Shown here piece by piece: positions 1 through 18,543 of a stretch of 19,472 nt of DNA. The DNA comes from an uncultured bacterium (GTDB taxonomy: Bacteria; Zixibacteria; MSB-5A5; JAABVY01; JAHJOQ01), in assembly GCA_965369655.1 (NCBI GenBank), contig CBDUQR010000048.1:1-19472 (forward strand), in the 5' to 3' direction. Below the pieces are notes generated by a model, which saw nothing but the letters and a program-made list of their open reading frames with translations, searched no databases and was not told where the DNA came from. How positions within the stretch are numbered: position 1 is the first letter of the stretch; each line of letters starts with the position of its first letter. The position numbers were made by a program, and so were the translations under genes.

Positions 1-734
1 TCAGCAATGTGAACAGCGGCTGTCGAGTATGATGCAGGCAATTCGTCCCACGATTTCCCCTCCAACAGACGTCCGGCTGCTTTTTTCCGAACTCCGCCCC
101 ATTGTTTGAAGAAGAACGGAACTCCGGCGGAGTAACACTGGTCCCTGATATCGATTACCCATTCTCGCTGCATGGGTCTGGCGCCCGGTCCGGATTCACC
201 GCCAACAATAACCCAGTCGATGCCGCTCAGATCGAGATCGGGGAGGGGTTCAAGCAGAGGTTCAAGGGATAGGAACTTTGTTTTCGCGCCAGTTTCTCGC
301 AGGTTATCAATCCGATCGACGAATCGCCTTGTCTCAACAGTCACGCCCATCCAGATGTTTGATGACCACTCCAGATTCCTGTTCATCTGCAGAAGCCTGC
401 CGGAGCGCTTGGTGAGAACCTGAAATGTGTGCCAGTGAGCGGCCTGCATGATGGAAAAGACATCAAGTATGAAATCCGAAGGGACACGTTTGTGGAAAAG
501 GTCGCTCATCGAGTTCACGAAGATCATCTGCGGCTTCTTCCAACTCAGCGGTTTGTCCAGGACATGCGGGTGGATCGCGACTTCAAACCCATTGGCATAG
601 TTGGGTTGTCCCATAGCCTTGAGTCGACGAGCCATGATTTCAGCGTAACAATGCCGGCATCCTGTACTGATCTTGGTGCATCCCGTCACCGGATTCCACG
701 TCGATTCAGTCCATTCGATTGCGGATTTGGCCAT
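1..734 (-). CDS. DUF5131 / phage Gp37/Gp68-family protein (three-Cys-motif, radical-SAM-like); 3' end runs off the window
   Basis: Not in the ORF track because there is no stop inside the window. Manual translation from ATG 734-732: MAKSAIEWTESTWNPVTGCTKISTGCRHCYAE...IFVNSMSDLFH...FQVLTKR...FLSLEPLL...IDWVIVGGESGPGARPM...FFFKQWGG...GRLLEGKSWDELP. These are the family's signature motifs (Cx6Cx2C, SMSDLFH, GGESG, FKQWGG). It starts 3 nt after the upstream gene's TAA. Confidence 0.93.
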   Translation of the reverse strand, partial: MAKSAIEWTESTWNPVTGCTKISTGCRHCYAEIMARRLKAMGQPNYANGFEVAIHPHVLDKPLSWKKPQMIFVNSMSDLFHKRVPSDFILDVFSIMQAAHWHTFQVLTKRSGRLLQMNRNLEWSSNIWMGVTVETRRFVDRIDNLRETGAKTKFLSLEPLLEPLPDLDLSGIDWVIVGGESGPGARPMQREWVIDIRDQCYSAGVPFFFKQWGGVRKKAAGRLLEGKSWDELPASYSTAAVHIA

Positions 735-737
735 TTC

Positions 738-1892
738 TTATTCCACGTCTATTTTGGGTGATGGAAATGTGACTACTACTTTTTCTGCAAATGTCGGTTT
801 GCCATGTTTTTTTGGTCTCTTTTCTGCAGGTGGATCTGCAGTGATTGCACCTTGTTCTTCCAATTTCAGGAGAGCGTCCTTATAATGGCTCGGTATGAAT
901 AGAGTGCCAACCGAATGAGCCTTGTATACGTCATACATCTTGAGTTCTTGACCTTGAAATGCTGCAAGGATACTCTCTGCCAGTTCGCCTGTTATGAATT
1001 CTGTCGGAAACAAATCGAACATCAATTGTCGGTCTCGAGGATCGAAGCCAAGTTCTCGTTGGGCTGATTCTCCACCAGTGCTTCGTTTGTACATAATCCC
1101 CTTCATTATGTCATATCCAAGAAAGTCCTTAGTTATAAATACAAGATAGTGACTTGGTCTGTCGGACTTTCTATTTTTCACTCGATAAGTCAACATATAC
1201 TTTGCCCCAGCTTCTGATAATGCATCTTCGAGCGCAGACAGTACTAACTTTTCCCGCTCCTGCTTTGAAGCTGCCTTCTGTATATTGTTCACGAGTTCAT
1301 TTCCTCTATCCCGACCGAAGATGGAATCTCGATGCTTGCTCCATTTCTTCTTCGCAATATCCATGTTGATGCGCCTGTAGTTGAACAAGAAGACACAGTC
1401 ACATCCCCAGTCCTTTATAACAGAATGGAACAAATTCTTTGACAGAACCTTGTAGCCAAAGGGATCGATAAAAGAAAAAGTCGGTGCCATTCTTCTTTTC
1501 TGTAGCAAAGCAACAACATCGTCTCCCGTCTCAGTCTGGCTTGCTACTGGTTTATACCTAAGTCTATCAAGTCCAGGCATTCCGTTCAGCACCTCTTTCA
1601 AAGAATCTGCGCATTCTTTATCGTTATCGTTTAATATGATTTTCACCCATTCACACAAATCTCGACTAGCGAGGACCTCCTGAATCACCAAGATCGGTGT
1701 GGACGGAGTGCCGTCATCGTATCGGCCCATTCCTGCACAAAGATCCAGATAGAGAATCCGGTCCGGTTTGTTGCGTTGTTTCTTGAGAGTGTTAACCATT
1801 ACCTTTGCCCATGCAACGAAATATGTCTTGACAATCTCTGCCTTAATGAGCGAATGGTCCTCAGGCTTCTCAAAGAACTTCTTTGTGTCCAC
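738..1892 (-). CDS. tcmP: Three-Cys-motif partner protein TcmP (SAM-dependent methyltransferase-like fold)
   Basis: Motifs HSLIKAEIVKTYFVAW, YLDLCAGMGRY-DG-STP, FSFIDPFGY, and YLVFITK..GYDIMK, plus adjacency to DUF5131, the known partner. Likely start is GTG 1892-1890 with AGGA 5 nt upstream; the ORF track extends to 1967. Confidence 0.85.
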   Translation of the reverse strand: MDTKKFFEKPEDHSLIKAEIVKTYFVAWAKVMVNTLKKQRNKPDRILYLDLCAGMGRYDDGTPSTPILVIQEVLASRDLCEWVKIILNDNDKECADSLKEVLNGMPGLDRLRYKPVASQTETGDDVVALLQKRRMAPTFSFIDPFGYKVLSKNLFHSVIKDWGCDCVFLFNYRRINMDIAKKKWSKHRDSIFGRDRGNELVNNIQKAASKQEREKLVLSALEDALSEAGAKYMLTYRVKNRKSDRPSHYLVFITKDFLGYDIMKGIMYKRSTGGESAQRELGFDPRDRQLMFDLFPTEFITGELAESILAAFQGQELKMYDVYKAHSVGTLFIPSHYKDALLKLEEQGAITADPPAEKRPKKHGKPTFAEKVVVTFPSPKIDVE

Positions 1893-2050
1893 ACTTATCC
1901 TGCCTTTCTGCTTCACCCCAATATAACCTACCCGAATTTCTATGATGTTGATGACATTGTCAATCATTTGTCAGCTAGCTAAGTCGCCTAATGCTGATGG
2001 GCGCAATGAAGCTCGAATTCTTAGTAGCTGAGATTTGGAACTATGGAGCG

Positions 2051-3037
2051 CTAGTTCTCTCTATTGATCGCGAAGCTGACGACGTTTTCGAGGGCAGTGT
2101 AGTATTTGGATGAGCCGTATTTGCGGAGAAGCTTGAGGCCGTTTTCGCCGAACTGCTCGGCGCGGTTCCTGGCGTATTCTATTCCGCCGGAATCCAAAAT
2201 GAAATCGATCACTTTCCTGTACTTGGATGGCTTCGTCCCGTTCGAGAGAATACCGGTGATCTCATTCCTGATCTTTTGAGACGACTTCTTGAGCGAGAAT
2301 ATAAGTGGCAACGTCGCCTTGCCCTGCATCAGGTCACTGCCGACCTGTTTGCCGATTTTCTTCGTATCGCCGACCAAGTCGAGCAGATCGTCCGCGATCT
2401 GGAACGAAATTCCGACATTTTCGCCAAACGATGCAAGCCGGTTGACCTCGCGGCTCGATGCGTTATTCAGAAGCGCACCGGATACCGCCGATGTCGAGAA
2501 GAGTGATGCCGTCTTCGCAGTAATTATGTCGAGGTAGACATCTTCTGTCAATTCGAAATTGCCACATTCCTCGATCTGCCGCAGTTCGCCGAATGCGACT
2601 TCCTCAGTGGTCTTTGACAATCGTTCCATAAGCTCAGGACACTTGGTAGAGACCAGCAGCCGGAACGCCTTGGCGAAGAAGAAATCGCCCATAAGGATAG
2701 AAATCAGGTTGTTCCACTTTGCATTGACCGTCTTATGACCACGGCGCGTGCCAGCTTCGTCGATAACGTCATCATGCAACAGCGTAGCGGTGTGGATCAA
2801 CTCGATAGCGAGCGCGGCGGAGACCATGCCGGAATGATCCATTCCGCTGCAGTGGGCGGTCAGGAACAGGAATGTGGGTCGAATGCGTTTACCGCGCTTT
2901 TCGAGAAGATAATCGAGCACACTCTGGACGAGAACAGAATCGGCAAGCAGATGCTTCTCGATCAACTTGTCGAATCTATTCAGATCGACCCTGACGGGGT
3001 CGAAAAACTGCTTTAACTGTCCGTTTTCCTTCAGCAT
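2051..3037 (-). CDS. Trans-polyprenyl diphosphate synthase (IspB/HepT-like)
   Basis: GKRIRP, IHTATLLHDDVID...RRG (FARM), KTASLF, FQIADDLLD (SARM), GK..GSDL.QGKATLP. ATG 3037-3035 is preferred over TTG 3076. Confidence 0.93.
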   Translation of the reverse strand: MLKENGQLKQFFDPVRVDLNRFDKLIEKHLLADSVLVQSVLDYLLEKRGKRIRPTFLFLTAHCSGMDHSGMVSAALAIELIHTATLLHDDVIDEAGTRRGHKTVNAKWNNLISILMGDFFFAKAFRLLVSTKCPELMERLSKTTEEVAFGELRQIEECGNFELTEDVYLDIITAKTASLFSTSAVSGALLNNASSREVNRLASFGENVGISFQIADDLLDLVGDTKKIGKQVGSDLMQGKATLPLIFSLKKSSQKIRNEITGILSNGTKPSKYRKVIDFILDSGGIEYARNRAEQFGENGLKLLRKYGSSKYYTALENVVSFAINREN

Positions 3038-3048
3038 AAAGTTACGTG

Positions 3049-3080
3049 AAAATACCAAATGGGTTTGAATTGTCAAACCC
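3049..3080 (-). promoter_or_regulatory. Hairpin after guaA (possible terminator) overlapping a sigma70-like promoter for the prenyl synthase
   Basis: Perfect inverted repeat GGGTTTGA-N4-TCAAACCC (3061-3080), 5 nt after the guaA stop. On the minus strand, TTGACA (3076-3071) is followed 16 nt later by TATTTT (3054-3049) with an extended -10 TGn. Confidence 0.5.
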
Positions 3081-3085
3081 TTTGT

Positions 3086-4633
3086 TTACTCCCATTCGAT
3101 AGTCGCCGGCGGTTTGGAACTGATGTCGTAGACAACCCTGTTGATCCCTGAGACGCGGTTAATGATCTCCGATGAGACCTCCGCAAGGACATGATCCGGT
3201 ATCCGCGCCCAGTCTGCGGTCATGCCGTCAGTCGATGTCACCGCGCGCAACGCCACGACATCCTCGTATGTCCGCTCGTCTCCCATGACTCCGACGGACT
3301 GGACTGGCAGCAGAACGCAGAAGGCCTGCCATATATTGTCGTATTCACCATGTTCGTGCAATGCCCTGATGAAAATGTCGTCGGCTTTCCTGATAAGATC
3401 AAGCCGCTCCTCGGTTATTTCTCCAAGGATTCGCACAGCAAGCCCAGGGCCCGGAAATGGATGCCTTCCGAGGATCTCGTTCTTGAGACCGAGCAGTCGT
3501 CCAAGCTTGCGAACTTCATCTTTGAAGAGCTCCCTGAGTGGTTCAATAAGCTCCAATTTCATCTGTTCCGGCAACCCGCCGACATTGTGGTGGCTTTTTA
3601 TAGTCGCGGACGGTCCCTTAAACGACACGGACTCAATGACATCCGGATAAAGCGTCCCCTGTGCAAGGAATCGGACATCACCGACGTCGTCGGCTGCCTT
3701 CTCGAAGACATCGATAAAAGTTCTGCCAATGATTTTGCGCTTCTGCTCGGGGTCGACAACTCCAGCCAATCCATCGAGGAATGCCTTTGAAGCATCGATC
3801 TTCTTTACGTTCACGTTCAGGTCGGCGAGCGCATCGGGGACATAGCTTCCCTCGTTCAACCGTAGCAGGCCATTATCCACGAATACGGACGTCAGTTTCT
3901 TTCCAATCGCTTTCGACAGGAGCAGGGCGCAGACGGCTGAATCGACGCCTCCGGATATACCGCAGATCACCTCTCCGTCACCAACTTTCTGCCTGATAGA
4001 ATTGATCTGGGACTCGATGAAAGATTCCATCGTCCAGCTTCCTTCAATTCCGCAAATGCCGGACAGGAAATTGGCGATTATCCTGTCGCCGCCGTCAGTG
4101 TGGAACACCTCTGGATGAAACTGCAGACCATAGAGTCCTCGGTCTTGGTTCTCGATGGCGGCGAAATCAACCGAATCGGTCATGCCTATCTGGCTGAAGC
4201 CATCGGGCAGCCGTATGAGGCTGTCGCCGTGACTCATCCAGACGGTGAATTCATCCGGCTGGCCGTCGAAAAGCTTCGAATCCCCGAGAATCGACAGCTT
4301 CGACCTGCCATATTCCCGACTCTCCGATTTGGATAATTCGCCCCCAAACAACTCTGCAATCAATTGAAGTCCATAGCAGATTCCGAGCACCGGTACGCCG
4401 AGATCGAAATATGCTTGATCGCAGATATAAGCATCGTCAGAGAGCACCGAATTGGGTCCGCCCGACAACACGATACCCCTGATCGGTTTGGTCCGGGCAT
4501 CTTCGATCGGATAATTGAAAGGAACGATTTCACAGAAAACCCTCTGTTCGCGTATGCGCCTCGCGATAAGTTGCGTGTACTGCGATCCGAAATCGAGTAT
4601 CAGGATCATGTCCTGAGAGGTCATGTCAGTCAT
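3086..4633 (-). CDS. guaA: GMP synthase (glutamine-hydrolysing)
   Basis: [82 protein letters not shown]. Alternative start ATG 4624. Confidence 0.98.
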
Positions 4634-6236
4634 CTTTGCTCAGTATGGTGTCGCGACGCCACAGTGCGTCATCGGTTTCAGGATAATCGGCATTGTTGTG
4701 GAGGCCGCGGGATTCCTTTCGCTGCATGGCGGACTTAACGATCAGTCGCGCCACCGTCACCAGGTTGCGCAGTTCTATCGCACCGAACGACGGCGGATAA
4801 CGGTGATGGAAATCCTCAGTTTCCTCAGTCAGTATTTCGAGCCGTTTCCTCGCGCGGTCGAGTCGTTCGTTTGATCTTACAACGCCGACATAGTGCCACA
4901 TGTGCCTGCGAAGCTCCGATTTGCTATGAGATATGAGCACTTCCTCATGTTCGCCGACCGAGTTGCTGGAGTCTGGCGTGTACTCCGTGAGCAATTCCGG
5001 CACGTTCGGTGAGACCGTCGAATCGAATGTCTCGACGGCAGACTTCGCGGCAAATTCCGCCACAACTACTGCTTCGAGAAGAGAATTGGAGGCCAGCCTG
5101 TTGGCACCATGCATTCCGGTGCAGGCGGCTTCACCCACGGCAAACAGCTTCTCGATGTTGGTTCTTCCCTGTACATCGGTTCTGATCCCTCCGCACATAT
5201 AGTGCGCCGCCGGCACAACCGGAATCGGATCGCGCGTTATGTCGATTTTCAGACCGAGCAATCGGTTGTAGATATTCGGGAATCTTCGCATGATGTAGTC
5301 GGATTTAATCGGCGTCAGGTCGAGAAACACGCATGGTTCACCCGAGAGTTTCAATTCTCTGTCGATAGCCCGCGCCACAACGTCTCTCGGCGCGAGATCC
5401 CTCTGCTCGTGATAATTCGACATGAAAGTCTCGCCCGATTTCAGTTTGAGCAGCGCGCCCTCGCCTCGCACCGCCTCGGAAATCAGGAAGTAGTCTCCGT
5501 CCGGATGGTACAATGCAGTCGGATGAAACTGCATGAACTCCATGTTCGAGATCGATGCGCCCGCACGGTATGCCATCGCAACGCCATCGCCGGTCGCAAT
5601 GGAGGGATTGGTAGTGTGCACATAGACATATCCGAGTCCGCCGGTTGCAAGAAGAGTAACGCGCGCGACAAATGCCTTGATCTCTCCTGCTATTGCATCG
5701 AAAGCGTGGCAGCCATAGCAGGTCGTCTTTCCGGCGGAGGAATCGACGATCAACTCGACCGCAAGGTGATCTTCGTACAGCGTGATATTCGGATTTGCCT
5801 TGATTGCAGTTAAAAGCCTGGTCTCCACCTCCCGACCGGTGTAGTCGGCAGCATGTACGACCCGCTGGGCGGAATGTCCCCCTTCCCGACCGGCATCGAG
5901 GTTTTCAAGCAAACTGCGATCGCCGGTATAGGAGAAATCAACACCGAGATCGAGAAGATTCCTGATCGCGTCCGGACCATGTTCGATAATTGCCCGAACG
6001 ATGTCATCGTGGCAGAGGCCTCTTCCTGCCTGGAGCGTGTCGTCGATGTGCTTCTCGAAAGAATCCTCCGACTTGATGACAGATGCTATGCCGCCCTGCG
6101 CATAGTTCGTATTCGATTCCGAGTCTTTCTTCTTGGTAATTACGGCGACTTTGCCTCCGGAGGCGACCCTGAGCGCAAACGACAATCCGGCTATGCCGGA
6201 ACCAACTATCAGAAAATCTACTTCATGCCGAATCAT
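4626..6236 (-). CDS. nadB: L-aspartate oxidase
   Basis: [85 protein letters not shown]. Confidence 0.97.
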
Positions 6237-7317
6237 CAATTACTCTCTCAATTAGGCGCATTAAGTTACTATCATCGCCCTGTATCTGCAAACGAATTCT
6301 GTACTCGAACAGTTCGACTTTCCGATTGTCGAGCGATCTTAGTTTGACGGCGTCCTTTTCTGTTACGATTGCCGCACTGCATTGCAGGGATCGACACTCG
6401 GCTATGATATCGTCGATATCCGACTGCGTGAATATATGGTGATCTCTGAAAGGCTTTGTTCCGGCAAGTGTATAGCCATCTCTCCTGAGTGTATCGAAGA
6501 ATGTGTCAGGTGCAGCAATTGCCGAGAATGCATAGACCGGAACGCCCAGCAGTGATGCCGGATCGACCTGTCCGCCCATAGTAATGTTGTAAACTCCATC
6601 GCAGACATAATCGGACAGAAGAATTCTCTCGTGCCCTGCGCGTGAAGCGATCTTTCTTCTCGTCTGTTCGATATCGTCACAGAGCGATATTCTCGTGACG
6701 ATAATCAGGTCCGCATCGGAGAGTGTTGATGACGGCTCCCTGAGATTACCTGACGGAAGCAGTCGCTCGGACCCGAACGGATTGCTGCAGTCCAGAACGA
6801 CTATGTCCGCATCGCGCTTTATCTTCAGGTGCTGGAAACCATCATCGAGAATAACAATGTCGAATTCGCAGGACTCCGACGCTGTCTCGAATGCGGCGAT
6901 CCTGTCCGCTCCAACCGCGATAGTCGCCGACAGTCTGTTCGCCATGAGAATGACTTCGTCGGATAAGCGTCTGTTTTCGATTTGTTCCGGTCCCTCGATC
7001 ACCTCGACCGAGTTTGACTCGCCTCCGTATCCGCGCGTCAGGATCAGCGGCTTCATGCCTCTTTTTTCGAGTTGACGAGAAAGATATATCAGTACCGGTG
7101 TCTTCCCCGATCCTCCTGCGGTGATTCCACCGACTGAGATGACCGGTTTCGGGAGTCTGACCGACTTTAGAATGCCGAATCGGTATAACTTCCTTCGCAT
7201 CACGACAGTTACGCGGTAGAGTATCGCGAACGGGAAGAGCATCCACCCGACAATGATCTCGGCTACCGATCGGTCTTTCTTCGACAGGAAACTCTGCACC
7301 GTTGCCTGATCAGGCAT
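6223..7317 (-). CDS. lpxK: Tetraacyldisaccharide 4'-kinase
   Basis: PVISVGGITAGGSGKTP, LTRGYGG, ILDDGFQHLKIKRD, LLPSGNLREP, FRDHHIF, VTEKDAVKL. It follows waaA with an overlapping stop/start. Confidence 0.96.
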   Translation of the reverse strand: MPDQATVQSFLSKKDRSVAEIIVGWMLFPFAILYRVTVVMRRKLYRFGILKSVRLPKPVISVGGITAGGSGKTPVLIYLSRQLEKRGMKPLILTRGYGGESNSVEVIEGPEQIENRRLSDEVILMANRLSATIAVGADRIAAFETASESCEFDIVILDDGFQHLKIKRDADIVVLDCSNPFGSERLLPSGNLREPSSTLSDADLIIVTRISLCDDIEQTRRKIASRAGHERILLSDYVCDGVYNITMGGQVDPASLLGVPVYAFSAIAAPDTFFDTLRRDGYTLAGTKPFRDHHIFTQSDIDDIIAECRSLQCSAAIVTEKDAVKLRSLDNRKVELFEYRIRLQIQGDDSNLMRLIERVIDDSA

Positions 7318-8578
7318 TTTGCTGACTCCAGAGATATCTAAGACGCTCGGTGACTTCTCCCAGATCTGATGAAAAGATCGACGAGACCTGCGCAGAGTCC
7401 GGTTTCAGAACCTTGCCGCACAGGCAGTCTTCGAGGAATCGAGCGAGTTCATCTCCATCGTGAACTGTTGTTGCCATCCCATGTTCTATACATTTGCACG
7501 CCAGGTCGATGCAGTTGTCCATGTGGGGACCAAAACAGGTTGGGACGCCGAGCGCGATCGGTTCGAGCGGATTGTGTCCGCCGATTGGGACAAGGCTGCC
7601 GCCGACGAATGCGCATTCGGCTATGCCGTACACTTTCCAGAGCTCGCCCATCGTGTCGAGGATCATGACGTCGTAATCCTGATAATCATCCGCCATCGCT
7701 GATCGTCTGAGGCATTTCAGTCCCCGGTTCAAAATGATCTTCTCGATTTCTTCGACCCTGACCGTGTGACGTGGAGCGAGGATCGCTTTCACATCGGGGT
7801 GTCCGATGCGAACCCTGTTAAACGCTTCTAATGCGAGTTCCTCCTCGCCCGGTCTTGTGGAACCGAAAACTACATACTTAACGTTATCTCGCAGGTGCAA
7901 CTCCTTCAGCACTTTTTGCCTGTCGAAACCAGCCAGATTCGAGATCATACCGGATACTTTGATATTGCCGCCAGTGTGGATTCGTCTCGGACTCGCTCCG
8001 AGTGCGGCAAACCTCCGGGCGTCCTTCTCCGACTGCGTGTGTATATAACTGAACGCACCGAGAAGAGGCTCGAAGATAGATCGCAGGGAGCGATACTTTG
8101 CAAAGCTCTTATCCGAAAGCCTTCCGTTCACGATTGCGATCGGCGTCTTGCGCTCCAGCGCTCGATGAACGAGATTAGGCCAAAGCTCGGTCTCGATCAG
8201 TACTATCATGCCGGGATTGATTCGTCGGAATGCGCGTCTGATAGCGAGTGTACACTCCATCGGCAGATAATAGATTTCGATATTCTCCGGAAGTTCATCG
8301 CGGGCAACCTTCATGCCTCGAGTTGTGAATACCGTGATCACGAAACGGGTGTCGGGAAGTCTGCCTTTCAGTGAATCGAGAAGGAGCATCGCGGCTTTGA
8401 ATTCGCCCACCGATGACGCATGTATCCATATCGATTTGCGATCACTATCATTCACTGATCCCCTGTAAAAACCGAGAAAGTTGAGAAGAGATGCATCGCC
8501 GAAGATTGCCTTGAGTATCAATACCGGCGCTGCCAGTGCAGCGGCGATGTGCGACAGGAACCAGTAAATTGCTCTCAA
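7310..8578 (-). CDS. waaA: 3-deoxy-D-manno-octulosonic acid (Kdo) transferase
   Basis: IWIHASSVGE, IETELWPNL, VNGRLSDKS, GNIK, GSTRPGEE, LAPRH, DTMGEL, FVGGSLVPIGGHNPLEP. Likely start TTG 8578-8576 with AAAGG upstream; the ORF track extends to 8647. Confidence 0.95.
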   Translation of the reverse strand: MRAIYWFLSHIAAALAAPVLILKAIFGDASLLNFLGFYRGSVNDSDRKSIWIHASSVGEFKAAMLLLDSLKGRLPDTRFVITVFTTRGMKVARDELPENIEIYYLPMECTLAIRRAFRRINPGMIVLIETELWPNLVHRALERKTPIAIVNGRLSDKSFAKYRSLRSIFEPLLGAFSYIHTQSEKDARRFAALGASPRRIHTGGNIKVSGMISNLAGFDRQKVLKELHLRDNVKYVVFGSTRPGEEELALEAFNRVRIGHPDVKAILAPRHTVRVEEIEKIILNRGLKCLRRSAMADDYQDYDVMILDTMGELWKVYGIAECAFVGGSLVPIGGHNPLEPIALGVPTCFGPHMDNCIDLACKCIEHGMATTVHDGDELARFLEDCLCGKVLKPDSAQVSSIFSSDLGEVTERLRYLWSQQNA

Positions 8579-8680
8579 GGAATCAACCTTTCGTTTCACC
8601 AGACGCCGTATGTGCGAGTTGCGTCTGCTCATGCGAATATAGCACAATACAGAATCTTGCGCAAAGGGGCAAAAACATGC

Positions 8681-8709
8681 TTGACAAACAGGGACGTCTG
8701 TATTATACT
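8681..8709 (+). promoter_or_regulatory. Near-consensus sigma70 promoter, divergent from waaA
   Basis: TTGACA (8681-8686), 17-nt spacer, TATACT (8704-8709). No credible + strand CDS follows. Confidence 0.8.
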
Positions 8710-8710
8710 T

Positions 8711-9190
8711 GGGCAGTCTGAAAGGAGACTGACCGCTCGATACCTCATTGCTACTGTATGTAAAGCTCTCGTTTTTTCGAAGTAGGTGTGCTTCTATTTA
8801 GCTGTTTGCTACGGTGATTGTAACTGAGTTTCCCTTGAACGGCCTTCGCGGTCGACAGGAGAATTGAGTAAACAGCCCATCCATATTGATACTGTGCTTA
8901 TCTGAGTTGCCTGAATATGTGTTCAGGCTGGTTGAACAAACGACTGGAGAGAGTACAGCTCACCATACCGCTACTGTTAGAGAGAAATCCTTCCTGCACA
9001 TGTGCAGGTGATACGAGGAAGACGACTTACCAGATACCGCTACTGCTGTTAGAACAACTGTTCGAGTGAGCCCAAAGCATCATTCAGATTGAACAGTTGA
9101 AAGTAACCTTATGTGCAGACCGTAATAGTTCTGCCGGAAGGAGGTGGTAGCGGTAACCAAACGGCCTTTCAAGCACCAATCTCACCAAGG
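8711..9190 (+). ncRNA. Candidate large structured non-coding RNA (~480 nt), family not recognised
   Basis: Lies downstream of a strong promoter and has no credible ORF. It contains at least 9 helices, several long-range and nested (8801-8810/8867-8876; 8892-8899/8951-8958; 9035-9047/9143-9155; 9055-9065/9089-9099). Their non-Watson-Crick positions are G-U wobbles on the + strand. Confidence 0.65.
8965..9045 (+). repeat. 12-nt direct repeat ATACCGCTACTG (8965-8976, 9034-9045), with a degenerate third copy at 8740-8756
   Basis: Read directly: ATACCGCTACTG-TTAGA and ATACCGCTACTG-CTG-TTAGA; upstream ATACC-tcatt-GCTACTG. Confidence 0.85.
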
Positions 9191-9212
9191 TTATCCCTGA
9201 GGGGGGAATTGC

Positions 9213-9500
9213 TCAGGTCGGGACCGACTGTTTCTTGATTGAACGGTCGAGAGTGCAGTCAGGTCTCGGCAGCTCTGTCCATGAGGAGAGGCATGTTCCG
9301 TCTTCAGTGAATTCCTGGCCATCGCAATCATCAAATTCATCATCCACATCACGCTTTCTTGAGCGGGATGAGCTGACCTTGAAGTCATAATCACAGTCAA
9401 CACATAAGTACAGATCGATAACACCTCCGAATGAGTCCTGAAGGATGACATCGTTGCCGGAACAACGGGGGCACTTTCTTGTTTTTCTGGAACGTCCCAT
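9213..9500 (-). CDS. Small Zn-ribbon protein with an acidic tail, function unknown
   Basis: ATG with AAGAGGA RBS; CPRC...CVDC (two CxxC pairs); basic N-terminus; acidic DVDDEFDDCD segment. Confidence 0.7.
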   Translation of the reverse strand: MGRSRKTRKCPRCSGNDVILQDSFGGVIDLYLCVDCDYDFKVSSSRSRKRDVDDEFDDCDGQEFTEDGTCLSSWTELPRPDCTLDRSIKKQSVPT

Positions 9501-9562
9501 TGGTCAAATCCTCTTACTTAGTCAACAATGCTCAGCAATCTATTCTCTTGTTCTTTCTCCGA

Positions 9563-9586
9563 ACCTATGATATAGATATCATAGGT
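9563..9586. promoter_or_regulatory. 24-bp palindrome, putative transcription-factor operator (or weak terminator of adh)
   Basis: ACCTATGATAT-AG-ATATCATAGGT, perfect 11-bp arms, in the intergenic gap upstream of the Zn-ribbon gene. Confidence 0.55.
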
Positions 9587-9640
9587 GAATACTTGTCTTT
9601 CTACCGACCTTTTCTCGACACCTTCTGGAATTCATCTCAT

Positions 9641-10696
9641 TTACTCAAAGGAGATAAGCGGTTTGATGATGTTATCTTCCTTGGTTTCCATCATCTTGAA
9701 TGCCTTCTCGAGTTCATTGAACTTGAATCGATGAGTCGTCATCGGAGTCGGATCGACTCGTCCTCTCTCGATTAGCCTTAGAAGTCTTTCCATCCTGACT
9801 TTTCCACCGGGGCAGAGGGCTGTTCTGATCGTTTTGTCACTCATTCCAACACCCCATTCCAAACGCGGTATCTTGACAAATTCGCCCTCTCCGAAGTATC
9901 CCACGACTGAGATTGTCCCTCCCGGCCGAGTGACTTAAATGCAGGCTTCAAACGTTTCCTGTCCGCCCAGACATTCGATGGCGGAATCAACTCCTTTGCC
10001 ATCGGTCAGTTCGAGGATATGCTCGACCGGATCAGACTTCGTGAAGTCAACGATCTCATCCGCACCGAACTTCGTGGCTGCCTCAAGCCGATTCGGTTTG
10101 CTATCGACAGCGATCACAAGTCCAGCTCCCAGCAGTCTCGCGCCGGCTGTCGCCATGAGCCCCACTGGACCCTGAGCAAATATGGCAACCGTACCACCGA
10201 GAGGTATATCCGCCTGCTCGGCTCCGATAAATCCTGTAGACATCATATCAGTAGCGTACACGGCTGCTTCGTCCGGAACAGCATTAGGTATCTTCGCAAG
10301 ATTCGCATCGGCGTCATTTACGTGGAAATATTCTGCGAATACACCGTCTTTGATATTAGCGAATTTCCATCCGCCGAGCATCTGAGTGCATTGTGATGGA
10401 AATCCACGAAGACAATTCTCACACATGAAGCACGGCGTGATCGCGTTGACAGCCACTCTATCGCCTTCTGTAAACCATCTAACTTCTTTGCCGACTTTTT
10501 GAACTGTGCCGACGGCCTCATGCCCGAGCGTGAGGTTGTTCCGGTCTCCAATCGCACCGTTGACAGTGTGAACATCAGATGTACAGACGAGCGCTCTTGT
10601 GGTTTTGACAAGAGCGTCATTCGGCCCGGGGCTCGGGATGTTTTTCTCTGCGAACCCGACCTGGCCGATACCATTCATCACAAAACATTTCATCAT
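9641..10696 (-). pseudogene. adh: Zn-dependent (secondary/isopropanol-type) alcohol dehydrogenase interrupted by an in-frame TAA
   Basis: CTSDVH, GHEAVG, C..C..C...FPSQC, GWKFANIKDGVF, TDMMSTGF, GPVGLMA, LCPGGKVRM, IKPLI. The two ORF-track pieces are in the same frame and read ...FEACI*VTRPGGTISVVGYFG... with the stop at 9937-9935. Total length is 352 codons. Confidence 0.88.
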
Positions 10697-10835
10697 TTTC
10701 TGAATCCATGGCTCACGTTTTTTGAGACCGGCGATTTGAGCCAACATCAGCCGGTTCCTACTGTCTTGTTAGTACCGGCGTTCAATCCCGGCATGTACAT
10801 TCGTATAAGGCTTCACACTCTGTTCTTTGTGAGAG

Positions 10836-12161
10836 CTAAGCTTTCGGTTTCTTTGTCCCATCAACGCTGTGGTTTCCCACAGAATCAAGTGCCACGAACG
10901 ACGGTAACGGTTTGATGAATCGCTGGCGTAGACTGTACGTATATGCGCCCTGAGTCGGGACTAACAGAACATCACCGCGCTCGATGCCATTGCCGAAGTA
11001 TGAATATCCCCAGATATCGTGTGGTGTGCAAAGCAACCCGTAAACGGCGCTCTCTCTCTCGTTAAGACTTGGTCTCGACAGGTTGATTACAGGAAAATAG
11101 TCGGTCTCGAATCTGTCCCATCCGACCGCATTTGTGCCTCCGTCGGTGACAACTATATCATCCGCCTTCTTGTCCACAACTTTGAGCAGGATGTGCACCG
11201 CATCATTGCATAGCCATCTACCCGGTTCAGCGTAGATCGTACAATCGATATGCGGCTGAATGTGTGTTTTGATCGCACTGCCGATTGCTTCAGCGAATTC
11301 CTCAATTGATGATGCCGGAAGTCTGTAATGAGTGAGATCGCTCGGCCAGAAGTTATCGGATGATGCGGCGCTAATCCTGCCAAAGTCTGTACCTGCTTCC
11401 TGAAGCCATTCGCCACGCGGAGGCCAGAATCCTCCGCCAATGTCTATGAATGAGATGGCCGAGCTCATATCTGCGTCGAGAGTCCTCAACTGCTTTCCGA
11501 GTCGCTCAATGAAGGCAATCTGTCTGCTCGAGTCGAGATTCCAACTCGTGTGAAATTGAATGCCTGTAATTCGCACGTTTTCGCAGCGACTGGATCTCAG
11601 GAAAAATTCAACGAGATCCTTGAGCGGGATTCCGAATTTTCTCCAAAGGCCGCTGTCTTCAGTGCTTACACGAACGCCAATTCGCATAGGATTGGCTGAG
11701 ACGCGTGCTGCTCTGTCCAGGCGCTCCAGTTCACCGAAACTATCGACCAATACCGTCACGCGATCCACGTAGTCGACCGCCATCCTCAACTCTTCGTCAG
11801 TTTTGCCGGGACCGCTGAACAGAATCCTATCGCATTTGCAGTTGATCGCCAGCTCCAATTCATTCCCACTGGAAACATCAAGACCGAGACTCGCTGAGAC
11901 GGCAGTTTCTGCTATCATCGGGTGATTATTGCTCTTTACAGCATAATAGATATGGACGTCCGGAAGAATGCCGTCAAAGGCGAAGCTGAACTCCGCTGCT
12001 CGGTTCAGAAAGGTCTTCCTATCGAACACATATAGTGGCGAGCCGTGTTCCTCTATCAGCCTGCAGAAGACATCGCTCTGCCGGTTGAATTGCTTAACAA
12101 ACGATTGGAGTTCCGTCTGTCGGAAGTACGGGCGTCTCGCGTGACAGTCGCTTCCTGACAC
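10836..12161 (-). CDS. PLP-dependent fold-type III decarboxylase (Orn/DAP/Arg decarboxylase family), substrate unknown
   Basis: YAVKSN (PLP lysine), DVSSGNEL, FSGPGKT, KFGI, IDIGGG, EPGR, LCTPHD, GAY. FHTSW replaces the usual HxGSQ. Start uncertain: GTG 12161, or ATG 12189 with a frameshift. Confidence 0.9.
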   Translation of the reverse strand: MSGSDCHARRPYFRQTELQSFVKQFNRQSDVFCRLIEEHGSPLYVFDRKTFLNRAAEFSFAFDGILPDVHIYYAVKSNNHPMIAETAVSASLGLDVSSGNELELAINCKCDRILFSGPGKTDEELRMAVDYVDRVTVLVDSFGELERLDRAARVSANPMRIGVRVSTEDSGLWRKFGIPLKDLVEFFLRSSRCENVRITGIQFHTSWNLDSSRQIAFIERLGKQLRTLDADMSSAISFIDIGGGFWPPRGEWLQEAGTDFGRISAASSDNFWPSDLTHYRLPASSIEEFAEAIGSAIKTHIQPHIDCTIYAEPGRWLCNDAVHILLKVVDKKADDIVVTDGGTNAVGWDRFETDYFPVINLSRPSLNERESAVYGLLCTPHDIWGYSYFGNGIERGDVLLVPTQGAYTYSLRQRFIKPLPSFVALDSVGNHSVDGTKKPKA

Positions 12162-12164
12162 CCT

Positions 12165-13472
12165 CTATGATGCTTTGGGTGCTCTGCATAACTCTTCTTC
12201 CATTTCGATCTTGAGCTTGGTGGAGATGTCGTGACATTCGTAGGGAATAGCGCTGACATCATTCGGACGGAAAATCACATGTCCCAAAATGCGGGAATCA
12301 TAATCGTACGGAGTAAGAACTACCCTGTGACCCACTCCGTGTCTGAGTTTGATGTCCCTGGCTCGAGAGTCAGAGGATATCAAATGGTGCGATAATCTTG
12401 TGATTGTGCCCTCCTGGGAGGCGAATAACCTGAGACCAACACAGGTGTTCCACTTGGTGTAATCCGGAGCAGTGTGGGATAATCCGTCGGCGAAGTTCAA
12501 CGCGAATGCTATAATGTCGAACTTCCCGCTCTGCAACATCAGTTCGGGCAAGCAATCACCACCCGGGCGTGGGGAGAGCTCGAGAAAGATAGCTTTGTCA
12601 TCCACTACCATGAAGTCAAGCATGCATATGGATCGAGTCAGTTTGAGAGCACGAGTTGCACGGAGGACTTCAGCTTTGAAGTCGCTGAGGTTGAATTTCT
12701 TTGGCAACATCGCCGGGATTACATACGCCCAGGTTGTGCCGAAAACCTGGCTTGGCGCATGTAGTTTCCTCGCGAATCGTATGATTTCTATGGATTCTCC
12801 ATTTACCTCAAAGTCACAGCTGAACTCGAGTCCATCGACGGATTCTTCGGCTATGAAGACTTTACGCGGACTCAATTCCAGGTGGTCGCTGGTGCCAGCC
12901 GGGTAGAGCCTGTCATCGCTGTGTCTGCTGATCCTTTTCTGCAAAGTTGAGAATGCCTTGGCGCATTCCTCTCGATCCTTGCACTTGAATACGAGTTCAC
13001 TGCCTGTTCCTGTCAGTGGCTTGAGTATGATCGGTCTATTCCGCTTATCGAAGATACTGAGGACATTATCGAGACAGTACACTGGATCGGCGTCGGGGCA
13101 GGGGACGCCGGCCTTTTTCCATGTTTTGCGTGTTACGTACTTGTTTCTGCAGGCAGTTACGGCCTCTCGGGAGGGGAATGGTAGTCCCAGTTTCTCGGCA
13201 AGATATGCTGCGAGATCAAGGGATTCGCAATCGAAACAGGCTAGGCCGGATGGCGTAATCTCTGTATTGTCAAGGTGGCTTCTCAGCGAATTGAATACTT
13301 CAGGATAGTCAGTGAGATCGCATGTGATCTCATCGCGATGCCAGAAATGACTTTCAGCCACATCCTCATTTATGCTGTGTGAAACAAAGAGTGTGCGACC
13401 CGGATAGCTTCTTCGAATCAGATCCACGTAATCTGTTGTTGTACCCACAGCCAATGTACGTCTATCCAACAT
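12165..13472 (-). CDS. ATP-grasp domain protein (L-amino-acid ligase-like)
   Basis: CRNKYVTR..W.KAGVPCP, IILKPLTGTGSELV, IAEESVDGLEFSCD, IFLELSPRPGGD, ILGHVIF. Likely start ATG 13472 (AAGAGG/AAGGA upstream), overlapping the GNAT stop by 11 nt. Confidence 0.88.
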   Translation of the reverse strand: MLDRRTLAVGTTTDYVDLIRRSYPGRTLFVSHSINEDVAESHFWHRDEITCDLTDYPEVFNSLRSHLDNTEITPSGLACFDCESLDLAAYLAEKLGLPFPSREAVTACRNKYVTRKTWKKAGVPCPDADPVYCLDNVLSIFDKRNRPIILKPLTGTGSELVFKCKDREECAKAFSTLQKRISRHSDDRLYPAGTSDHLELSPRKVFIAEESVDGLEFSCDFEVNGESIEIIRFARKLHAPSQVFGTTWAYVIPAMLPKKFNLSDFKAEVLRATRALKLTRSICMLDFMVVDDKAIFLELSPRPGGDCLPELMLQSGKFDIIAFALNFADGLSHTAPDYTKWNTCVGLRLFASQEGTITRLSHHLISSDSRARDIKLRHGVGHRVVLTPYDYDSRILGHVIFRPNDVSAIPYECHDISTKLKIEMEEELCRAPKAS

Positions 13473-14424
13473 TCCTTGCCTCTTTAGGTCTTGCTTGCTG
13501 GTTAAATCCGGCACCGTCGAAGTTCGAAATTGCGAAGAGTGGTCTCGGAGTAAGGTGGAACATGGGCTTCCAGGAGAATTCTCCGCAAAGGAAATCAACT
13601 TCCCTGATTCGCTCTTCGCACGCCCAGCTCATGTGGTGTATGTTGATCAGTTTGGCAATACCGGGGAATTCAGGATCGGTACTACCTGCAATTAGCGTAT
13701 AAGCATTGTTGAAAACAGCTCCGAGATCGACTGCCGCTGGCATTCCGTCTACTAAGACCGTCGTTATTCGAAGCCACCCGTTCTTAGCTAACAGGTGCAT
13801 CAAGCATCGAATGCTTTCACGGAATTTGATGTCATGGAAATATGAACGTTCCTCGTACCTGCTTAGATTCTGAGTTATGAGAGTATCGAAATCAGCCAGA
13901 CAATCGTATCTGAAGCTTAAATTCCGTGATTCCCAATCTCTAAGGATGTTCTTGATGCGCTTGGCTGATTTGCCCGAGAACTCCTGGAAATAGTTTTCCA
14001 TATCGTATCCGTACTTCGGCGGTTCGAACAAATACCCGACTTCATCAATAGCACAACCGTTAGTCCCAATCGAATCCATCTCACGCAAATAACGGAGTTT
14101 ATACGGCGCTGGTATGGCATCGAATAGCATAGTGCGAGTCTTGTCGTCGCAAGCAATAATACGATTCTGCTCGATCCAGGTCTTACCTTCCCAGGTCTCA
14201 CCGGGGAAGTAGCTGTAGCAAGATGTCTCATCGTTCCAGCTGAGCGGGAGCAGGCCGGTGATCCGGCCACGCTCTTCCGTTACAATGAAAAGGGGGGATA
14301 AATTGAAGTGGCGATCGAAACATCTGCGAACTTCCCACAGATCCCAAATTGTCTCTCTGGGCATAGTTTCGTTCCAGAGCTTCTCGCACTCTTGTATGTC
14401 TGAGACGAGCCTAACCTTGTACAT
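13462..14424 (-). CDS. GNAT-family acyltransferase (CelD/BcsL, Acetyltransf_6-like double GNAT)
   Basis: N-terminal 'W..L...FD.HF...LFIV.EE.GRITGLLPL'; central YFQEFSGKSAKRIK; C-terminal VLVDGMPAAVDLG...GSTDPEFPGIAKL...EVDFLCGEFSWK. Confidence 0.8.
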   Translation of the reverse strand: MYKVRLVSDIQECEKLWNETMPRETIWDLWEVRRCFDRHFNLSPLFIVTEERGRITGLLPLSWNDETSCYSYFPGETWEGKTWIEQNRIIACDDKTRTMLFDAIPAPYKLRYLREMDSIGTNGCAIDEVGYLFEPPKYGYDMENYFQEFSGKSAKRIKNILRDWESRNLSFRYDCLADFDTLITQNLSRYEERSYFHDIKFRESIRCLMHLLAKNGWLRITTVLVDGMPAAVDLGAVFNNAYTLIAGSTDPEFPGIAKLINIHHMSWACEERIREVDFLCGEFSWKPMFHLTPRPLFAISNFDGAGFNQQARPKEARNVG

Positions 14425-14427
14425 GGC

Positions 14428-14877
14428 TTAACGCCTCAGGTTTATCTGTGTTATGCACTCCGCGCCGCCGAAGAACTTCTTGGCAAACTCAGCAACGACA
14501 TTCGGGTCGTATGATTTACAGCTGAAAACGTCCAGATAAGTAGCATTGGTCTTATTCGCGAAATGCGCTGATATCAGTGATGTCTCGATCAGCTGAACCA
14601 TCGAATAACCAGCAACTCTCTCATCCTCACCGAAGTGAACCACCATCGTTTCTCCAAAGCGTTTCATCTCTATGAGATCGCAGAGCTCTGACACGAACTG
14701 CTTTATTTTGTCGGCGTCGCGAATCGTTGCAGGATCGCATCCGTAAATGTCAAAGCTGCATGCTAATCCCCAGGCTCGATGCAGTTCATCTACACTGAAG
14801 TTACTTACGGTTGAGTCTGCAGACAGCGCTGCGGAGCACTTCACAGCTACATCAGGTGTTTCAACTATTGCCTTCAT
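14428..14877 (-). CDS. S-adenosylmethionine decarboxylase-family (pyruvoyl) proenzyme
   Basis: WG....DIYGCD, HFG...GYSMVQLIETSLISAHF, YLDVFSCKSYD: SpeD/SpeH class 1b-like fold with an ETS motif at the processing site. Start ATG 14877 with GGAG RBS. Confidence 0.87.
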   Translation of the reverse strand: MKAIVETPDVAVKCSAALSADSTVSNFSVDELHRAWGLACSFDIYGCDPATIRDADKIKQFVSELCDLIEMKRFGETMVVHFGEDERVAGYSMVQLIETSLISAHFANKTNATYLDVFSCKSYDPNVVAEFAKKFFGGAECITQINLRR

Positions 14878-14954
14878 CTCGTTTCTCCAAAACTTCGTTG
14901 TTAACTCGGAGTGCATCGGTTGGCTACGGGCCAATGGACCGATACACCCACCCC

Positions 14955-15530
14955 TTAGCCTTTTCGCTGCCCCTTATTAGGCATGAGCACTGCGTCGATT
15001 ACATGGATCACGCCGTTCTCACACCAAATGCCGTAGTCGAGTGCTACGGCATCGCCGATTTTTGTCAATCCTGTTTCGGATCTCGTTATTACGATTCTCT
15101 CACCGGCTATAGTGATGAGTGTGTCGTTCGCGGTTTTGCCAAACAAATAAGATATTCCGACAACGATGTGGTTGCTCAATACCTCCCGTAGATATTCCGT
15201 ATCTGACAGGAGAGCATCGAGATCATCTTTTGCCAGTTTGTCGAATGATGAATCATCGGGTGCGAAAAATGTGAACGATTGCCTCGTATCGAGGAATTCA
15301 TCCAACCCCGTCTTAGTCAGTAGTAAGGCTGCGAACTCGAGTGTGCTGTATTCGCTCATCACATTCACTACACTATACTCCAATTCATCGGGAGCCAGCT
15401 CGAACTTATCAAGGTAATCGGGGTGATCGTCAGGCTCTTGTGCTCCGGTGGATGTGTATAGTATGAAACCTACCGTTGCAGGTCCTATCAGGAACCAACT
15501 GGATCGCAATATGTCTCGTATTGCTTTCAT
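14955..15530 (-). CDS. Fasciclin (FAS1) domain protein, secreted or membrane-anchored
   Basis: N-terminal hydrophobic segment; FTFFAPDDSSF (H1), VLSNHIVVG, ENGVIHVIDAVLMP (H2); GGAGGT RBS. Confidence 0.92.
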   Translation of the reverse strand: MKAIRDILRSSWFLIGPATVGFILYTSTGAQEPDDHPDYLDKFELAPDELEYSVVNVMSEYSTLEFAALLLTKTGLDEFLDTRQSFTFFAPDDSSFDKLAKDDLDALLSDTEYLREVLSNHIVVGISYLFGKTANDTLITIAGERIVITRSETGLTKIGDAVALDYGIWCENGVIHVIDAVLMPNKGQRKG

Positions 15531-15550
15531 CTCATCTTACCTCCGCTGAA

Positions 15551-15574
15551 CGCGGATATTGAAACAATTCCGCG
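15551..15574 (-). terminator. Stem-loop between groEL and the fasciclin gene (weak terminator or stability element)
   Basis: CGCGGA-t-ATTG-aaa-CAAT-TCCGCG, 14 nt after the groEL stop. There is no clear U-tract. Confidence 0.35.
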
Positions 15575-15588
15575 CTCACATATTGTGA

Positions 15589-17526
<1,938 letters not shown>

Positions 17527-17889
17527 AATCATGTGCTCCTGTTTTCCCTCGTTCCGGATCCACTTCACCATAGCGGGTAAATGGGTCCGGCTGACTAAGC
17601 GTCCTGAGCTATCACGTACCGATTCCCGGCTACTCCTGTGAGCTGCGCTCATCAGTACGCGCTTCTTCAATGGCCGACGTATCGGCAATGCCGACTACAC
17701 CGGTATGTGATCTGTTGTGGATAGATTCCCTATGTTAGCATAGGTTGCAACCCTCCAGCACGGGCTGCGGGGCTACGTGGATCAGGTGGTGAGCCTGAGG
17801 TCGCCTTCCCCGTGTCCCGGCAAAAGCAGAACTCCAACCGAACTAGTATGGCGACAATTGTTTATGTAAGATCCCATCTTCTCAGCATG

Positions 17890-18543
17890 CTACTTTTTCT
17901 TGGGCATCGCTTCCTTAATGAATCGAACGAGTCCAGCGACAAACGCACTTTTTAGACTCATGAAAGATTCTTCAACTTCCTCCGCCGAACTGGCAATACT
18001 GGCAAAGGAATAATATCCGGAGATGAATCCTCCGATGGCGAACGCCACCTTTCGAAGGATTTCCCTTGAAACCTTCATGGTGACCGCTGAGTCGACCATC
18101 TTCTCTATAGTCCGTATGTAATTCAGGTATGGCGCCTCGATTCCGTCGTAACTCTGGTCCAGAGTCAGGTCAGACCGACCTAAATAGTATAGCACGAAAT
18201 CCTCCCATCGGCCAACAAAGTAGTCCGTGTGCGCCTGTATTATACCTTCCATGACAGAAGGCAGGTCTGACTCATCATCGCACTGTACTTTCATCTCCCG
18301 AATGAGACCAGACATGACCTCTTCGATGAGATTCTTAACCAGTTCCCCTTTGCTATCGAAATGATAATAGAAAGTTCCGCGGCCAAGATCAGCGCGCTCA
18401 GTTATGTCGTCCACGGTAGTAGCCTCAATGCCCTTCTCCGAGATGACGGAGCGAGCGGCTTCTGTGATTTTCTTGTGCGTCTTCTTGACACGTCTGTCTT
18501 GCCGGCTCTGCCTTTTGGCCGGCTTCTTGGCTTCGGCTTCCAT
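17890..18543 (-). CDS. TetR/AcrR-family transcriptional regulator
   Basis: DRRVKKT.KKI..AA..VISEKGIEATTVDDITERADLGRGTFYYHFDSKGEL HTH. Alternative in-frame ATGs at 18573 and 18585. Confidence 0.93.
   Translation of the reverse strand: MEAEAKKPAKRQSRQDRRVKKTHKKITEAARSVISEKGIEATTVDDITERADLGRGTFYYHFDSKGELVKNLIEEVMSGLIREMKVQCDDESDLPSVMEGIIQAHTDYFVGRWEDFVLYYLGRSDLTLDQSYDGIEAPYLNYIRTIEKMVDSAVTMKVSREILRKVAFAIGGFISGYYSFASIASSAEEVEESFMSLKSAFVAGLVRFIKEAMPKKK

Follow-up and report, generated by a model that had tools for sequence, protein, structure and literature searches.

Large, intricately folded bacterial RNAs of elusive role are, to our knowledge, rare. OLE, GOLLD, ROOL, raiA and HEARO each led to unexpected biology, most recently to RNA-only cages and dimers, and OLE RNA (Rfam accession RF01071) measures about 0.6 kb. 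ROOL and GOLLD are described (PMC12286853) as large ornate RNAs that form RNA-only homo-oligomers. The present analysis concerns a stretch of 19,472 nucleotides (the window) from an uncultured bacterium of the phylum Zixibacteria (GenBank assembly GCA_965369655.1, here G000; contig CBDUQR010000048.1, positions 1 to 19,472 of the forward strand), in which a first-pass annotation had proposed an unrecognised RNA of about 480 nt with several structured domains. Positions 8714–9300 (+) probably represent the first 587 nt of a structured non-coding RNA (ncRNA) whose gene is lineage-specific, stands alone with its own promoter and was cut here at 9300/9301 by a rearrangement. The proposal of a large stand-alone ncRNA with a strong promoter, absent from Rfam and in the size class of OLE and ROOL, was therefore supported. 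The proposed size and 3′ end had to be revised, as homology and structure reach 9300 and the native RNA measures about 0.8–1.0 kb, roughly twice the earlier estimate. Nor does the window hold the complete RNA: its copy is a truncated duplicate without the 3′ 450 nt and the terminator.

The RNA appears most like the large ornate RNAs OLE, ROOL and GOLLD, which it resembles in being large and complex and in having no obvious role. Like OLE, it is a structured ncRNA that stands alone, measures several hundred nucleotides and combines many conserved stems with single-stranded words that are likewise conserved; it also occurs in anaerobic uncultured or extremophilic lineages and is presumably highly expressed. 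It differs from OLE in phylum and in its length of about 0.8–1.0 kb, and shows no covariance-model similarity to it. With ROOL and GOLLD it shares the size class, a multi-domain ornate fold and an elusive function, as well as, in principle, repeated complementary words that could mediate self-association, oligomerisation of the Zixibacteria RNA being speculation. Unlike those two, which are associated with phages, prophages or tRNA clusters, it has no tRNA in its loci and no match in the phage and plasmid collections, occupies a chromosomal, syntenic location and gives no match to their covariance models. A strong promoter and a stand-alone gene of the trans-acting housekeeping type are also reminiscent of 6S RNA, whose niche is formally open in G000, where the 6S model found nothing. 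However, 6S RNA is a single rod with a central bubble, whereas the Zixibacteria RNA is four to five times longer, is branched, has its 5′ end in a local hairpin and does not match the 6S model.

The RNA would form a new class within this known broad kind; no described family matches it. The earlier suggestion of a possibly new class stands in so far as there is no Rfam match, and is limited to seven full or near-full sequences and one 3′ fragment (from genome G001), all from one Zixibacteria family. We lean slightly towards a new class of very large (0.8–1.0 kb) ornate RNAs of uncultured sediment Zixibacteria, built from repeated stem modules that have one sequence word in common, which would serve as a multivalent scaffold or a self-assembling particle, and of which G000 would carry a promoter-driven domain-deletion paralogue besides the full-length copy. 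The literature on Zixibacteria combined with ncRNA or structured RNA yielded no such RNA; the supplements of two 2026 preprints on the mining of non-coding elements with genome language models might list it. If this is a further class of about 1 kb, it would be one of the largest such RNAs, and would come from a phylum without cultured members. It would also be a good target for structure determination, since the repeated modules and the invariant linkers point to an ordered fold in three dimensions, and the presence of full-length and truncated copies in one genome provides a natural experiment on the domains needed.

The promoter reported in the first-pass annotation is present at 8681–8709 (+) and is of the sigma-70 type (TTGACA-17-TATACT; 11 of 12 positions matching). 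One such site corresponds to the chance level for the region (2.0 ± 1.3 in shuffles), but it counts because the orthologues carry the same promoter at the same place. Formal scans of these gave matches of 11–12 of 12, and the promoter was also recognised by eye in further loci. TTGACA is invariant in all seven aligned sequences and the −10 hexamer is good in the full-length orthologues. Transcription would start at about 8714–8716. Two A-tract words, GCAAA and GCAAAAAC, lie upstream at 8661–8676 (+; by eye) and resemble an UP element. Phased words of this kind (GCAAA, then GCAAAAA) were likewise seen by eye directly upstream of the −35 hexamer in G002, G003, G004, G005 and a metagenome contig; they may represent either an UP element or the site of a regulator, shared with the divergent promoter of the neighbouring gene waaA. 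At the other end of the gene, each full-length orthologue has a terminal GC hairpin with a U-rich tail (by eye in most), which was formally called as a terminator in the metagenome contig only, and the seven sequences that reach this region all have a conserved CUCUCC tail before it. Together with the covarying structure and the absence of a conserved open reading frame (ORF) set out below, the promoter and terminator are those of an independent ncRNA gene.

A second copy of the RNA in G000 was found by a search of relatives with positions 8660–9260, on contig C28 (21258–21856), with 92% identity. By alignment to C28, the duplicated segment comprises 754 bp (8547–9300): waaA contributes its first ~100 nt and the RNA its 5′ ~587 nt, with the promoter region between them; BLAST gives 8707–9300 for the RNA part. 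Identity is about 90% across 8547–9040 and nearly 100% across 9045–9300. The waaA start on C28 (~100 nt) carries indels and is thus a dead fragment. Window positions 9288–9300 (+) are the 5′ strand of a conserved long hairpin, termed d, as judged by comparison with copy 2 and the orthologues. Its loop and 3′ strand follow in copy 2 and in all orthologues, whereas in the window the strand breaks at 9300/9301 and unrelated DNA follows. Beyond the equivalent of 9300, C28 completes the long hairpin with its second half, adds about 450 nt that are non-coding as well, and has a GC hairpin followed by a U-rich tail. The window copy consequently retains the stem modules, linker and domain c described below, and is without hairpin d, the 3′ domain and the terminator. 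As the window keeps the ancestral upstream gene waaA, and C28 keeps the full RNA and a downstream stretch common to G005, we take the two loci to descend from a single ancestral one, split in a rearrangement in which 754 bp were duplicated. A transposase helix-turn-helix fragment (PF01527; L006:8033–8335, −) lies 63 nt from the boundary of the C28 copy.

Between the two copies, which are separated by 38 substitutions, 44 alignment columns differ, and 34 of these are unpaired in the joint consensus, a construct biased toward compatibility. In this consensus, two pairs changed on both sides (8783/8790, U-G to A-U; 8995/9006, U-A to C-G), six changed on one side and still pair, and none is broken. 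Copy 2 further differs by an insertion in its variable region of a GC-rich hairpin word of ~25 nt, GTCATTCCCGCGAAGGCGGGAATC (L006:6910–6935). Near-identical copies of this word occur in ~160 of 285 genomes of the phylum, often several in each (e.g., L019–L042), and it looks like a REP-like or miniature repeat.

It is unlikely that the window copy is an assembly or strain artefact, with one RNA locus per cell and the two versions stemming from two strains or from a chimeric contig. The genome was assembled from a metagenome and the identity between copies is oddly split between the 5′ part and the 3′ part, as such an origin might entail. However, contigs assembled independently from three DNA runs span both junctions: 9013–9800 and 9251–9624 cross 9300, and 8200–8916 crosses the left boundary near 8547. 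In these run contigs the C28 continuation appears as a loose end at 9300. The depths of the two versions are similar (9.4–10.3 versus 12.9 in run X2), and both versions lie inside long contigs. All three runs belong to one study, possibly of the source sample, which tempers their weight. Even if the artefact were real, the existence of the RNA family would be unaffected.

Homologues were sought across the phylum and beyond. An exact two-block pattern was found in three of 185,579 species genomes and in one metagenome contig, and BLAST with the C28 RNA matched all five remaining members of the family. In G001, which belongs to the same genus, only the last ~210 nt of the RNA are present, at a contig start where the assembly breaks inside it. 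The full-length orthologues measure ~0.8–0.9 kb, and the intact gene of G000 ~1.04 kb. In G002, G003, G004 and G005, which represent every other genus with an assembled locus, the RNA adjoins waaA in divergent orientation, which confirms the synteny upstream of this gene that the first-pass annotation had advised to inspect. The anchor itself encodes a Kdo transferase (PF04413 by Pfam; 7310–8647, −), and in G002 and G004 the ORF sizes after waaA, considered as sizes only, fit the window order lpxK-nadB-guaA. Apart from the extra copy in the window, the RNA gene is single-copy, and the waaA-linked copy of G000 is the truncated one.

The distribution is confined to this family in every collection searched. 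BLAST against 285 genomes of the phylum gave matches in 168; outside the family, all of the matches listed cover ~25–50 nt around the inserted hairpin. Of 30 waaA loci, an nhmmer profile of the RNA recognised just those of the four family members and gave nothing below E 1 in the remaining 26. In 23 of 24 other-family loci a large same-strand ORF precedes waaA, so that an RNA of this size would not fit there; for the 24th, the upstream sequence was limited to 169 nt. When 151 genomes were searched with a covariance model built on the 3′ domain, all five family genomes in the sample were recovered, including the own genome (E 1e-18 to 4e-25). Of two weak extra hits, the stronger is terminator-like, and neither fits the RNA profile. 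Phage and plasmid collections contained nothing similar to the RNA. A relaxed pattern matched nine viral contigs of IMG/VR, which showed no further profile similarity (best nhmmer E 0.79) and appeared coding-like by eye.

The Rfam check advised with the first-pass annotation was performed on the whole window with Rfam 15, including the models of OLE, ROOL, GOLLD, raiA, HEARO, 6S, T-box and group II intron domains, and no family reached its gathering threshold. With E values up to 10, region 8500–9500 gave a single hit, the S4 leader on the minus strand (21.2 bits against a threshold of 48.8; E 0.61). The four full-length RNA loci, searched with E values up to 1, also gave one, FtrB (32.5 against 66 bits; E 0.043), which is due to the unrelated hairpin inserted in copy 2; both hits are at the level of chance. 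The earlier statement that the RNA shows no hallmark motifs of tmRNA, RNase P, SRP or group I/II introns was corroborated by the lack of Rfam matches and by the presence of RNase P RNA (C84, 285.9 bits) and SRP RNA (C76, 66.2 bits) above threshold elsewhere in the genome. ARAGORN detected no tmRNA in the window, the RNA loci or the whole genome, and the Rfam tmRNA model matched only tRNA-sized pieces. The RNA was accordingly considered as the tmRNA of G000, where SmpB is present on C38, and this identity was rejected, as G001–G004 carry a canonical tmRNA besides the RNA. The tmRNA of G000 probably falls into a gap of the assembly, which also contains just half of the 16S rRNA, at one end of contig C95. 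No tRNA genes were found in the RNA loci by ARAGORN. An antisense RNA was also discarded: no other site of the genome matches or complements the conserved blocks at up to two mismatches, except for short low-information words.

No ORF longer than 50 aa starts inside 8722–9190 on either strand and none is conserved across the family, in agreement with the first-pass annotation, which had seen no credible ORF in the region. Among 346 six-frame stop-to-stop segments of the seven sequences, 58 cross-genus matches of 8–41 aa were found. All six frames, forward and reverse, contain such matches, and these fall on the same conserved nucleotide blocks, which indicates nucleotide conservation rather than a gene. 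At the broken end of the RNA lies an overlapping orphan ORF of 95 aa (9213–9500, −), which carries two CxxC pairs close to the N-terminus and whose final 31 codons derive from the RNA sequence. Neither a Pfam match nor, among 20 relatives, a homologue was found for it.

For the structural analysis, the RNA sequences were aligned with mafft L-INS-i, sub-alignments were folded with RNAalifold, and pairing was compared with slid controls and shuffles. Two of the seven aligned sequences come from one genome and two more are very alike, so that the set includes two close pairs. The structure was counted on helices derived from these same seven sequences, whereby the slid control favours the structure, and the shuffle counts are not probabilities, as related sequences without structure can exceed shuffles too. 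RNAalifold gave little or no consensus on the whole alignment and on an alignment of the 5′ ends because loop sizes and modules vary among the genera. In the sub-alignments, pairing reached 85.7% for the 23 pairs of domain c (9179–9287; 34–52% when slid), with eight pairs changed on both sides, and 92.3% for the 13 pairs of long hairpin d (slid, 30–40%), with three such changes. The corresponding values were 96.6% for the 17 pairs of the 3′ domain (slid, 50–64%; six pairs changed on both sides) and 88.9% for the 13 pairs of the closing helix of a module termed D3 (seven sequences; slid, 13–76%; two pairs changed on both sides). When the sets were combined with one putative long-range helix, pairing across the 72 pairs was 86.0%, compared with 40–47% when slid. 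Fourteen pairs changed on both sides, as against 3–6 in slid controls and a mean of 8.7 in shuffles, five of 500 of which reached 14, while none of 500 attained the covariation score. The base pairs of the proposed structure thus covary. Folding energies pointed the same way, with z scores on the plus strand of −6.74 for G003 and −5.95 for G005 (0 of 20 shuffles as good in each; −2.46 on the minus strand of G005). For window positions 8714–9300, z was −2.69 on the plus strand (0 of 100 shuffles) and −0.77 on the minus strand (23 of 100).

The intact RNA begins with a 5′ hairpin, after which come four or five stem modules. These are followed by a 15-nt linker, domain c, long hairpin d and a variable region, and finally by a 3′ domain, in which ACAGUAC is invariant, and the CU-rich tail. 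In the window, the 5′ hairpin spans 8714–8731 (+), with arms CAGUCU/AGACUG (8714–8719/8726–8731) and the purine loop GAAAGG. It is found in minimum-energy folds, as are modules D2 and D3 with their inner hairpins, so that these elements of the earlier model stand. When folded alone, five of the seven sequences form a 5′ hairpin with a purine word in its loop and differing arm sequences; G002 and the metagenome contig have a different weak hairpin at the 5′ end. The 5′ loop carries AGGAG or GGAGG in all seven. A small hairpin, GAAGUA/UGCUUC (8779–8794, +; arms 8779–8784/8789–8794), likewise proposed before, can be read in the sequence and is part of the two-copy consensus.

Each stem module has a word of the type G[CU]UAC[CU]G at or beside the 5′ strand of its closing helix. 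The word count for the window gave a first strict copy at 8750–8756, further strict copies at 8970–8976 and 9039–9045, and relaxed copies at 8808–8814 and 8888–8894 (all +). The three strict copies compare with 0.1 expected (one of 300 shuffles reaches three), and the other sequences have 2–4 against 0.1–0.2 expected. The partner strands pair with differing parts of the word, which is thus conserved beyond the needs of pairing. This suggests module duplication, recognition of the module bases by a common factor, or both.

Module D1 (8801–8876, +; closing helix 8801–8810/8867–8876, inner hairpin 8840–8854) appears in the centroid and in a local fold. The closing helix is kept in copy 2 with a one-sided change at 8805/8872. 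D1 was therefore recovered as proposed for this genus, although the register of its closing helix is genus-specific, with UACCGU/ACGGUA used in the other genera. D2 (8892–8958, +) has the closing helix CUGUGCUU/GAGUACAG (8892–8899/8951–8958) and an inner hairpin at 8908–8928 in minimum-energy folds. An equivalent closing helix is found in local folds of all seven sequences, its second pair being U-A or C-G according to genus (by eye, uncounted). Module M4 (8968–9033, +; two-copy consensus) consists of the repeated word followed by the hairpin CCUGCA/UGCAGG (8993–8998/9003–9008). D3 (9035–9155, +) has two inner hairpins and a 13-bp closing helix (9035–9047/9143–9155), the 3′ strand of which is an invariant block, GGAGGUGGUAGC. 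Its G-U pairs at 9044/9146, 9045/9145 and 9047/9143 uphold the earlier assignment of the plus strand as the folding strand.

A near-invariant linker, GCCUUUCAAGCACCA (9164–9178, +; from the alignment), follows and is unpaired in the consensus. It is identical in six of the seven sequences, G003 deviating at two places. A putative pairing of the 5′ loop with this linker (helix 1) reached 76.8%, with zero pairs changed on both sides. Domain c (9179–9287, +) contains a closing helix (9180–9185/9281–9286), a small G-rich hairpin, a long branched stem (9216–9269) and the hairpin GGCA/UGUC (9268–9279). The final hairpin of the earlier model, at 9196–9201/9212–9217, is not kept in other genera, where the consensus has a 4-bp hairpin in its place. 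Other putative long-range contacts, seen by eye or in single folds, would link the first repeated word with ACAGUAC and a G-rich tract with the CU-rich tail.

Several observations weigh against this reading of the locus. Transcription, ends and abundance of the RNA are all deduced from sequence, and no RNA run contains it. A formal scan for terminators missed those of G002 and of the second G000 copy, because the loops exceed the limit of the scanner and copy 2 has a weak U run. Only seven sequences and one 3′ fragment are available, from which the structure was itself derived, and the number of further pair types was unexceptional (reached by 45 of 500 shuffles). The long-range contacts cannot covary because their bases are invariant. 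Within the window copy, two mismatches (8975 and 8978) affect the M4 basal helix, which is GGUAAG/CUUACC in copy 2, and an A at 9281, instead of the G of copy 2, produces a C-A mismatch at 9185/9281. The comparison of folding energies with shuffles, advised at the outset, was favourable for 8714–9300 but not for the span originally put forward: 8711–9230 has a z score of only −1.41 on the plus strand (12 of 100 shuffles as good) and −0.57 on the minus strand; this span cuts a domain in two. Finally, as regards the scaffold idea discussed next, the repeated word may only reflect module duplication.

As for the mode of action, the repeated words and the near-invariant unpaired blocks (the linker at 9164–9178, ACAGUAC and the CU-rich tail) are best fitted by a scaffold that acts in trans. 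We tentatively propose that the RNA may be such a multivalent scaffold, a possibility to which we give limited credence. The bases of the repeated modules, which are conserved in sequence, would then allow one RNA-binding protein, or copies of the RNA itself, to dock at several equivalent places, and the RNA would not act as a leader, antisense RNA or coding transcript.

Alternatively, the RNA may serve as a decoy, or sponge, whose repeated short motifs sequester a global RNA-binding regulator such as CsrA. The genome has a CsrA gene, a repeated word is enriched, and most sequences present a GGA-containing purine loop on the 5′ hairpin, which together with the repeated short word recalls CsrB and RsmZ. 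However, GGA is not enriched in either G000 copy: copy 2 has 23 where 22.9 are expected, and the window copy has 9 where 10.1 are expected. The orthologues have 16–25 against 15–20 expected, and only two of them exceed nearly all shuffles (2 and 8 of 300 reach the count). The word that is enriched is not of the CsrA type and lies at helix bases, mostly within helices rather than loops, and in size and order the RNA goes far beyond known sponges, its conserved structure being a further difference from CsrB and RsmZ. A sponge is therefore improbable.

The purine tracts raise a further alternative, in which the RNA would interact with the small ribosomal subunit, its Shine-Dalgarno-like tracts (the 5′ loop and GGAGGUGG) pairing with the 16S tail or, as a switch, with its own CU-rich tail. 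GGAGGUGG is invariant in all seven sequences, AGGAG or GGAGG is always present in the 5′ loop, the CUCUCC tail before the terminator is conserved, and, by reading, no start codon follows either tract. Against this, D3 uses the GGAGGUGG block as the 3′ strand of its closing helix, which leaves the block mostly paired, and the tracts are invariant, so that covariation can give no evidence; the 3′ end of the 16S rRNA is unassembled in G000. We consider such a role quite doubtful, and favour the scaffold over it.

A cis-acting leader, T-box-like or another riboswitch, for a downstream aminoacyl-tRNA synthetase gene is very improbable. In G002 and G004 a class II synthetase gene is the next on the same strand, and the RNA shares with T-boxes this position in two genera and a conserved GGUGGUA word. 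In contrast to a T-box, it has its own terminal hairpin, which in G002 lies ~280 nt before the synthetase start codon and is followed ~250 nt on by a separate promoter-like site (by eye) that precedes the gene. In G004, mobile genes are inserted between RNA and synthetase, and the downstream gene is not conserved elsewhere. G005 and the metagenome contig have no obvious same-strand coding start downstream, where the sequence resembles the antisense of a coding region (by eye); copy 2 of G000 is followed only by ORFs without a Pfam match, and neither G000 copy has a synthetase gene after it within the annotated stretch. No T-box or riboswitch model matched, even at E values up to 10. The own promoter, the terminal hairpin and the varying downstream context indicate that the RNA is its own transcription unit rather than a leader.

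Equally implausible is a mobile or repeat element (a transposon end, a MITE or the guide RNA of a transposon nuclease) instead of a cellular RNA gene, as the two copies in G000, the transposase fragment 63 nt off and an IS200-like transposase downstream in G004 are outweighed by the single-copy, waaA-syntenic RNA of the other genera, by the inclusion of a waaA piece in the duplicate, which denotes a segmental duplication and not an element with ends of its own, and by the searches, which gave no match in the phage and plasmid collections and, for the nine viral contigs with the relaxed pattern, no further profile similarity.

The RNA locus seems rearrangement-prone, with mobile-element genes at its edges. 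In G004 (L011:5552–6732), an IS200-like Y1 transposase and an ORF with a T5orf172 domain lie between the RNA and the synthetase gene. Elsewhere in the window, a zinc-type alcohol dehydrogenase (9641–10747, −) and GroEL (15589–17218, −) are each split into two overlapping or adjacent ORFs, possibly by frameshifts, which would be due either to real pseudogenes or to assembly indel errors. A pathway for polyamines or modified polyamines is suggested by the cluster at 10836–14934 (−), with genes for a PLP-dependent decarboxylase of the Orn/DAP type, an S-adenosylmethionine decarboxylase, a GNAT-like acetyltransferase (PF13480) and an ATP-grasp enzyme. At the left contig end (3–1967, −), a DUF5131 protein of the phage Gp37/Gp68-like family is found beside a protein with a GMT-like winged-helix domain.

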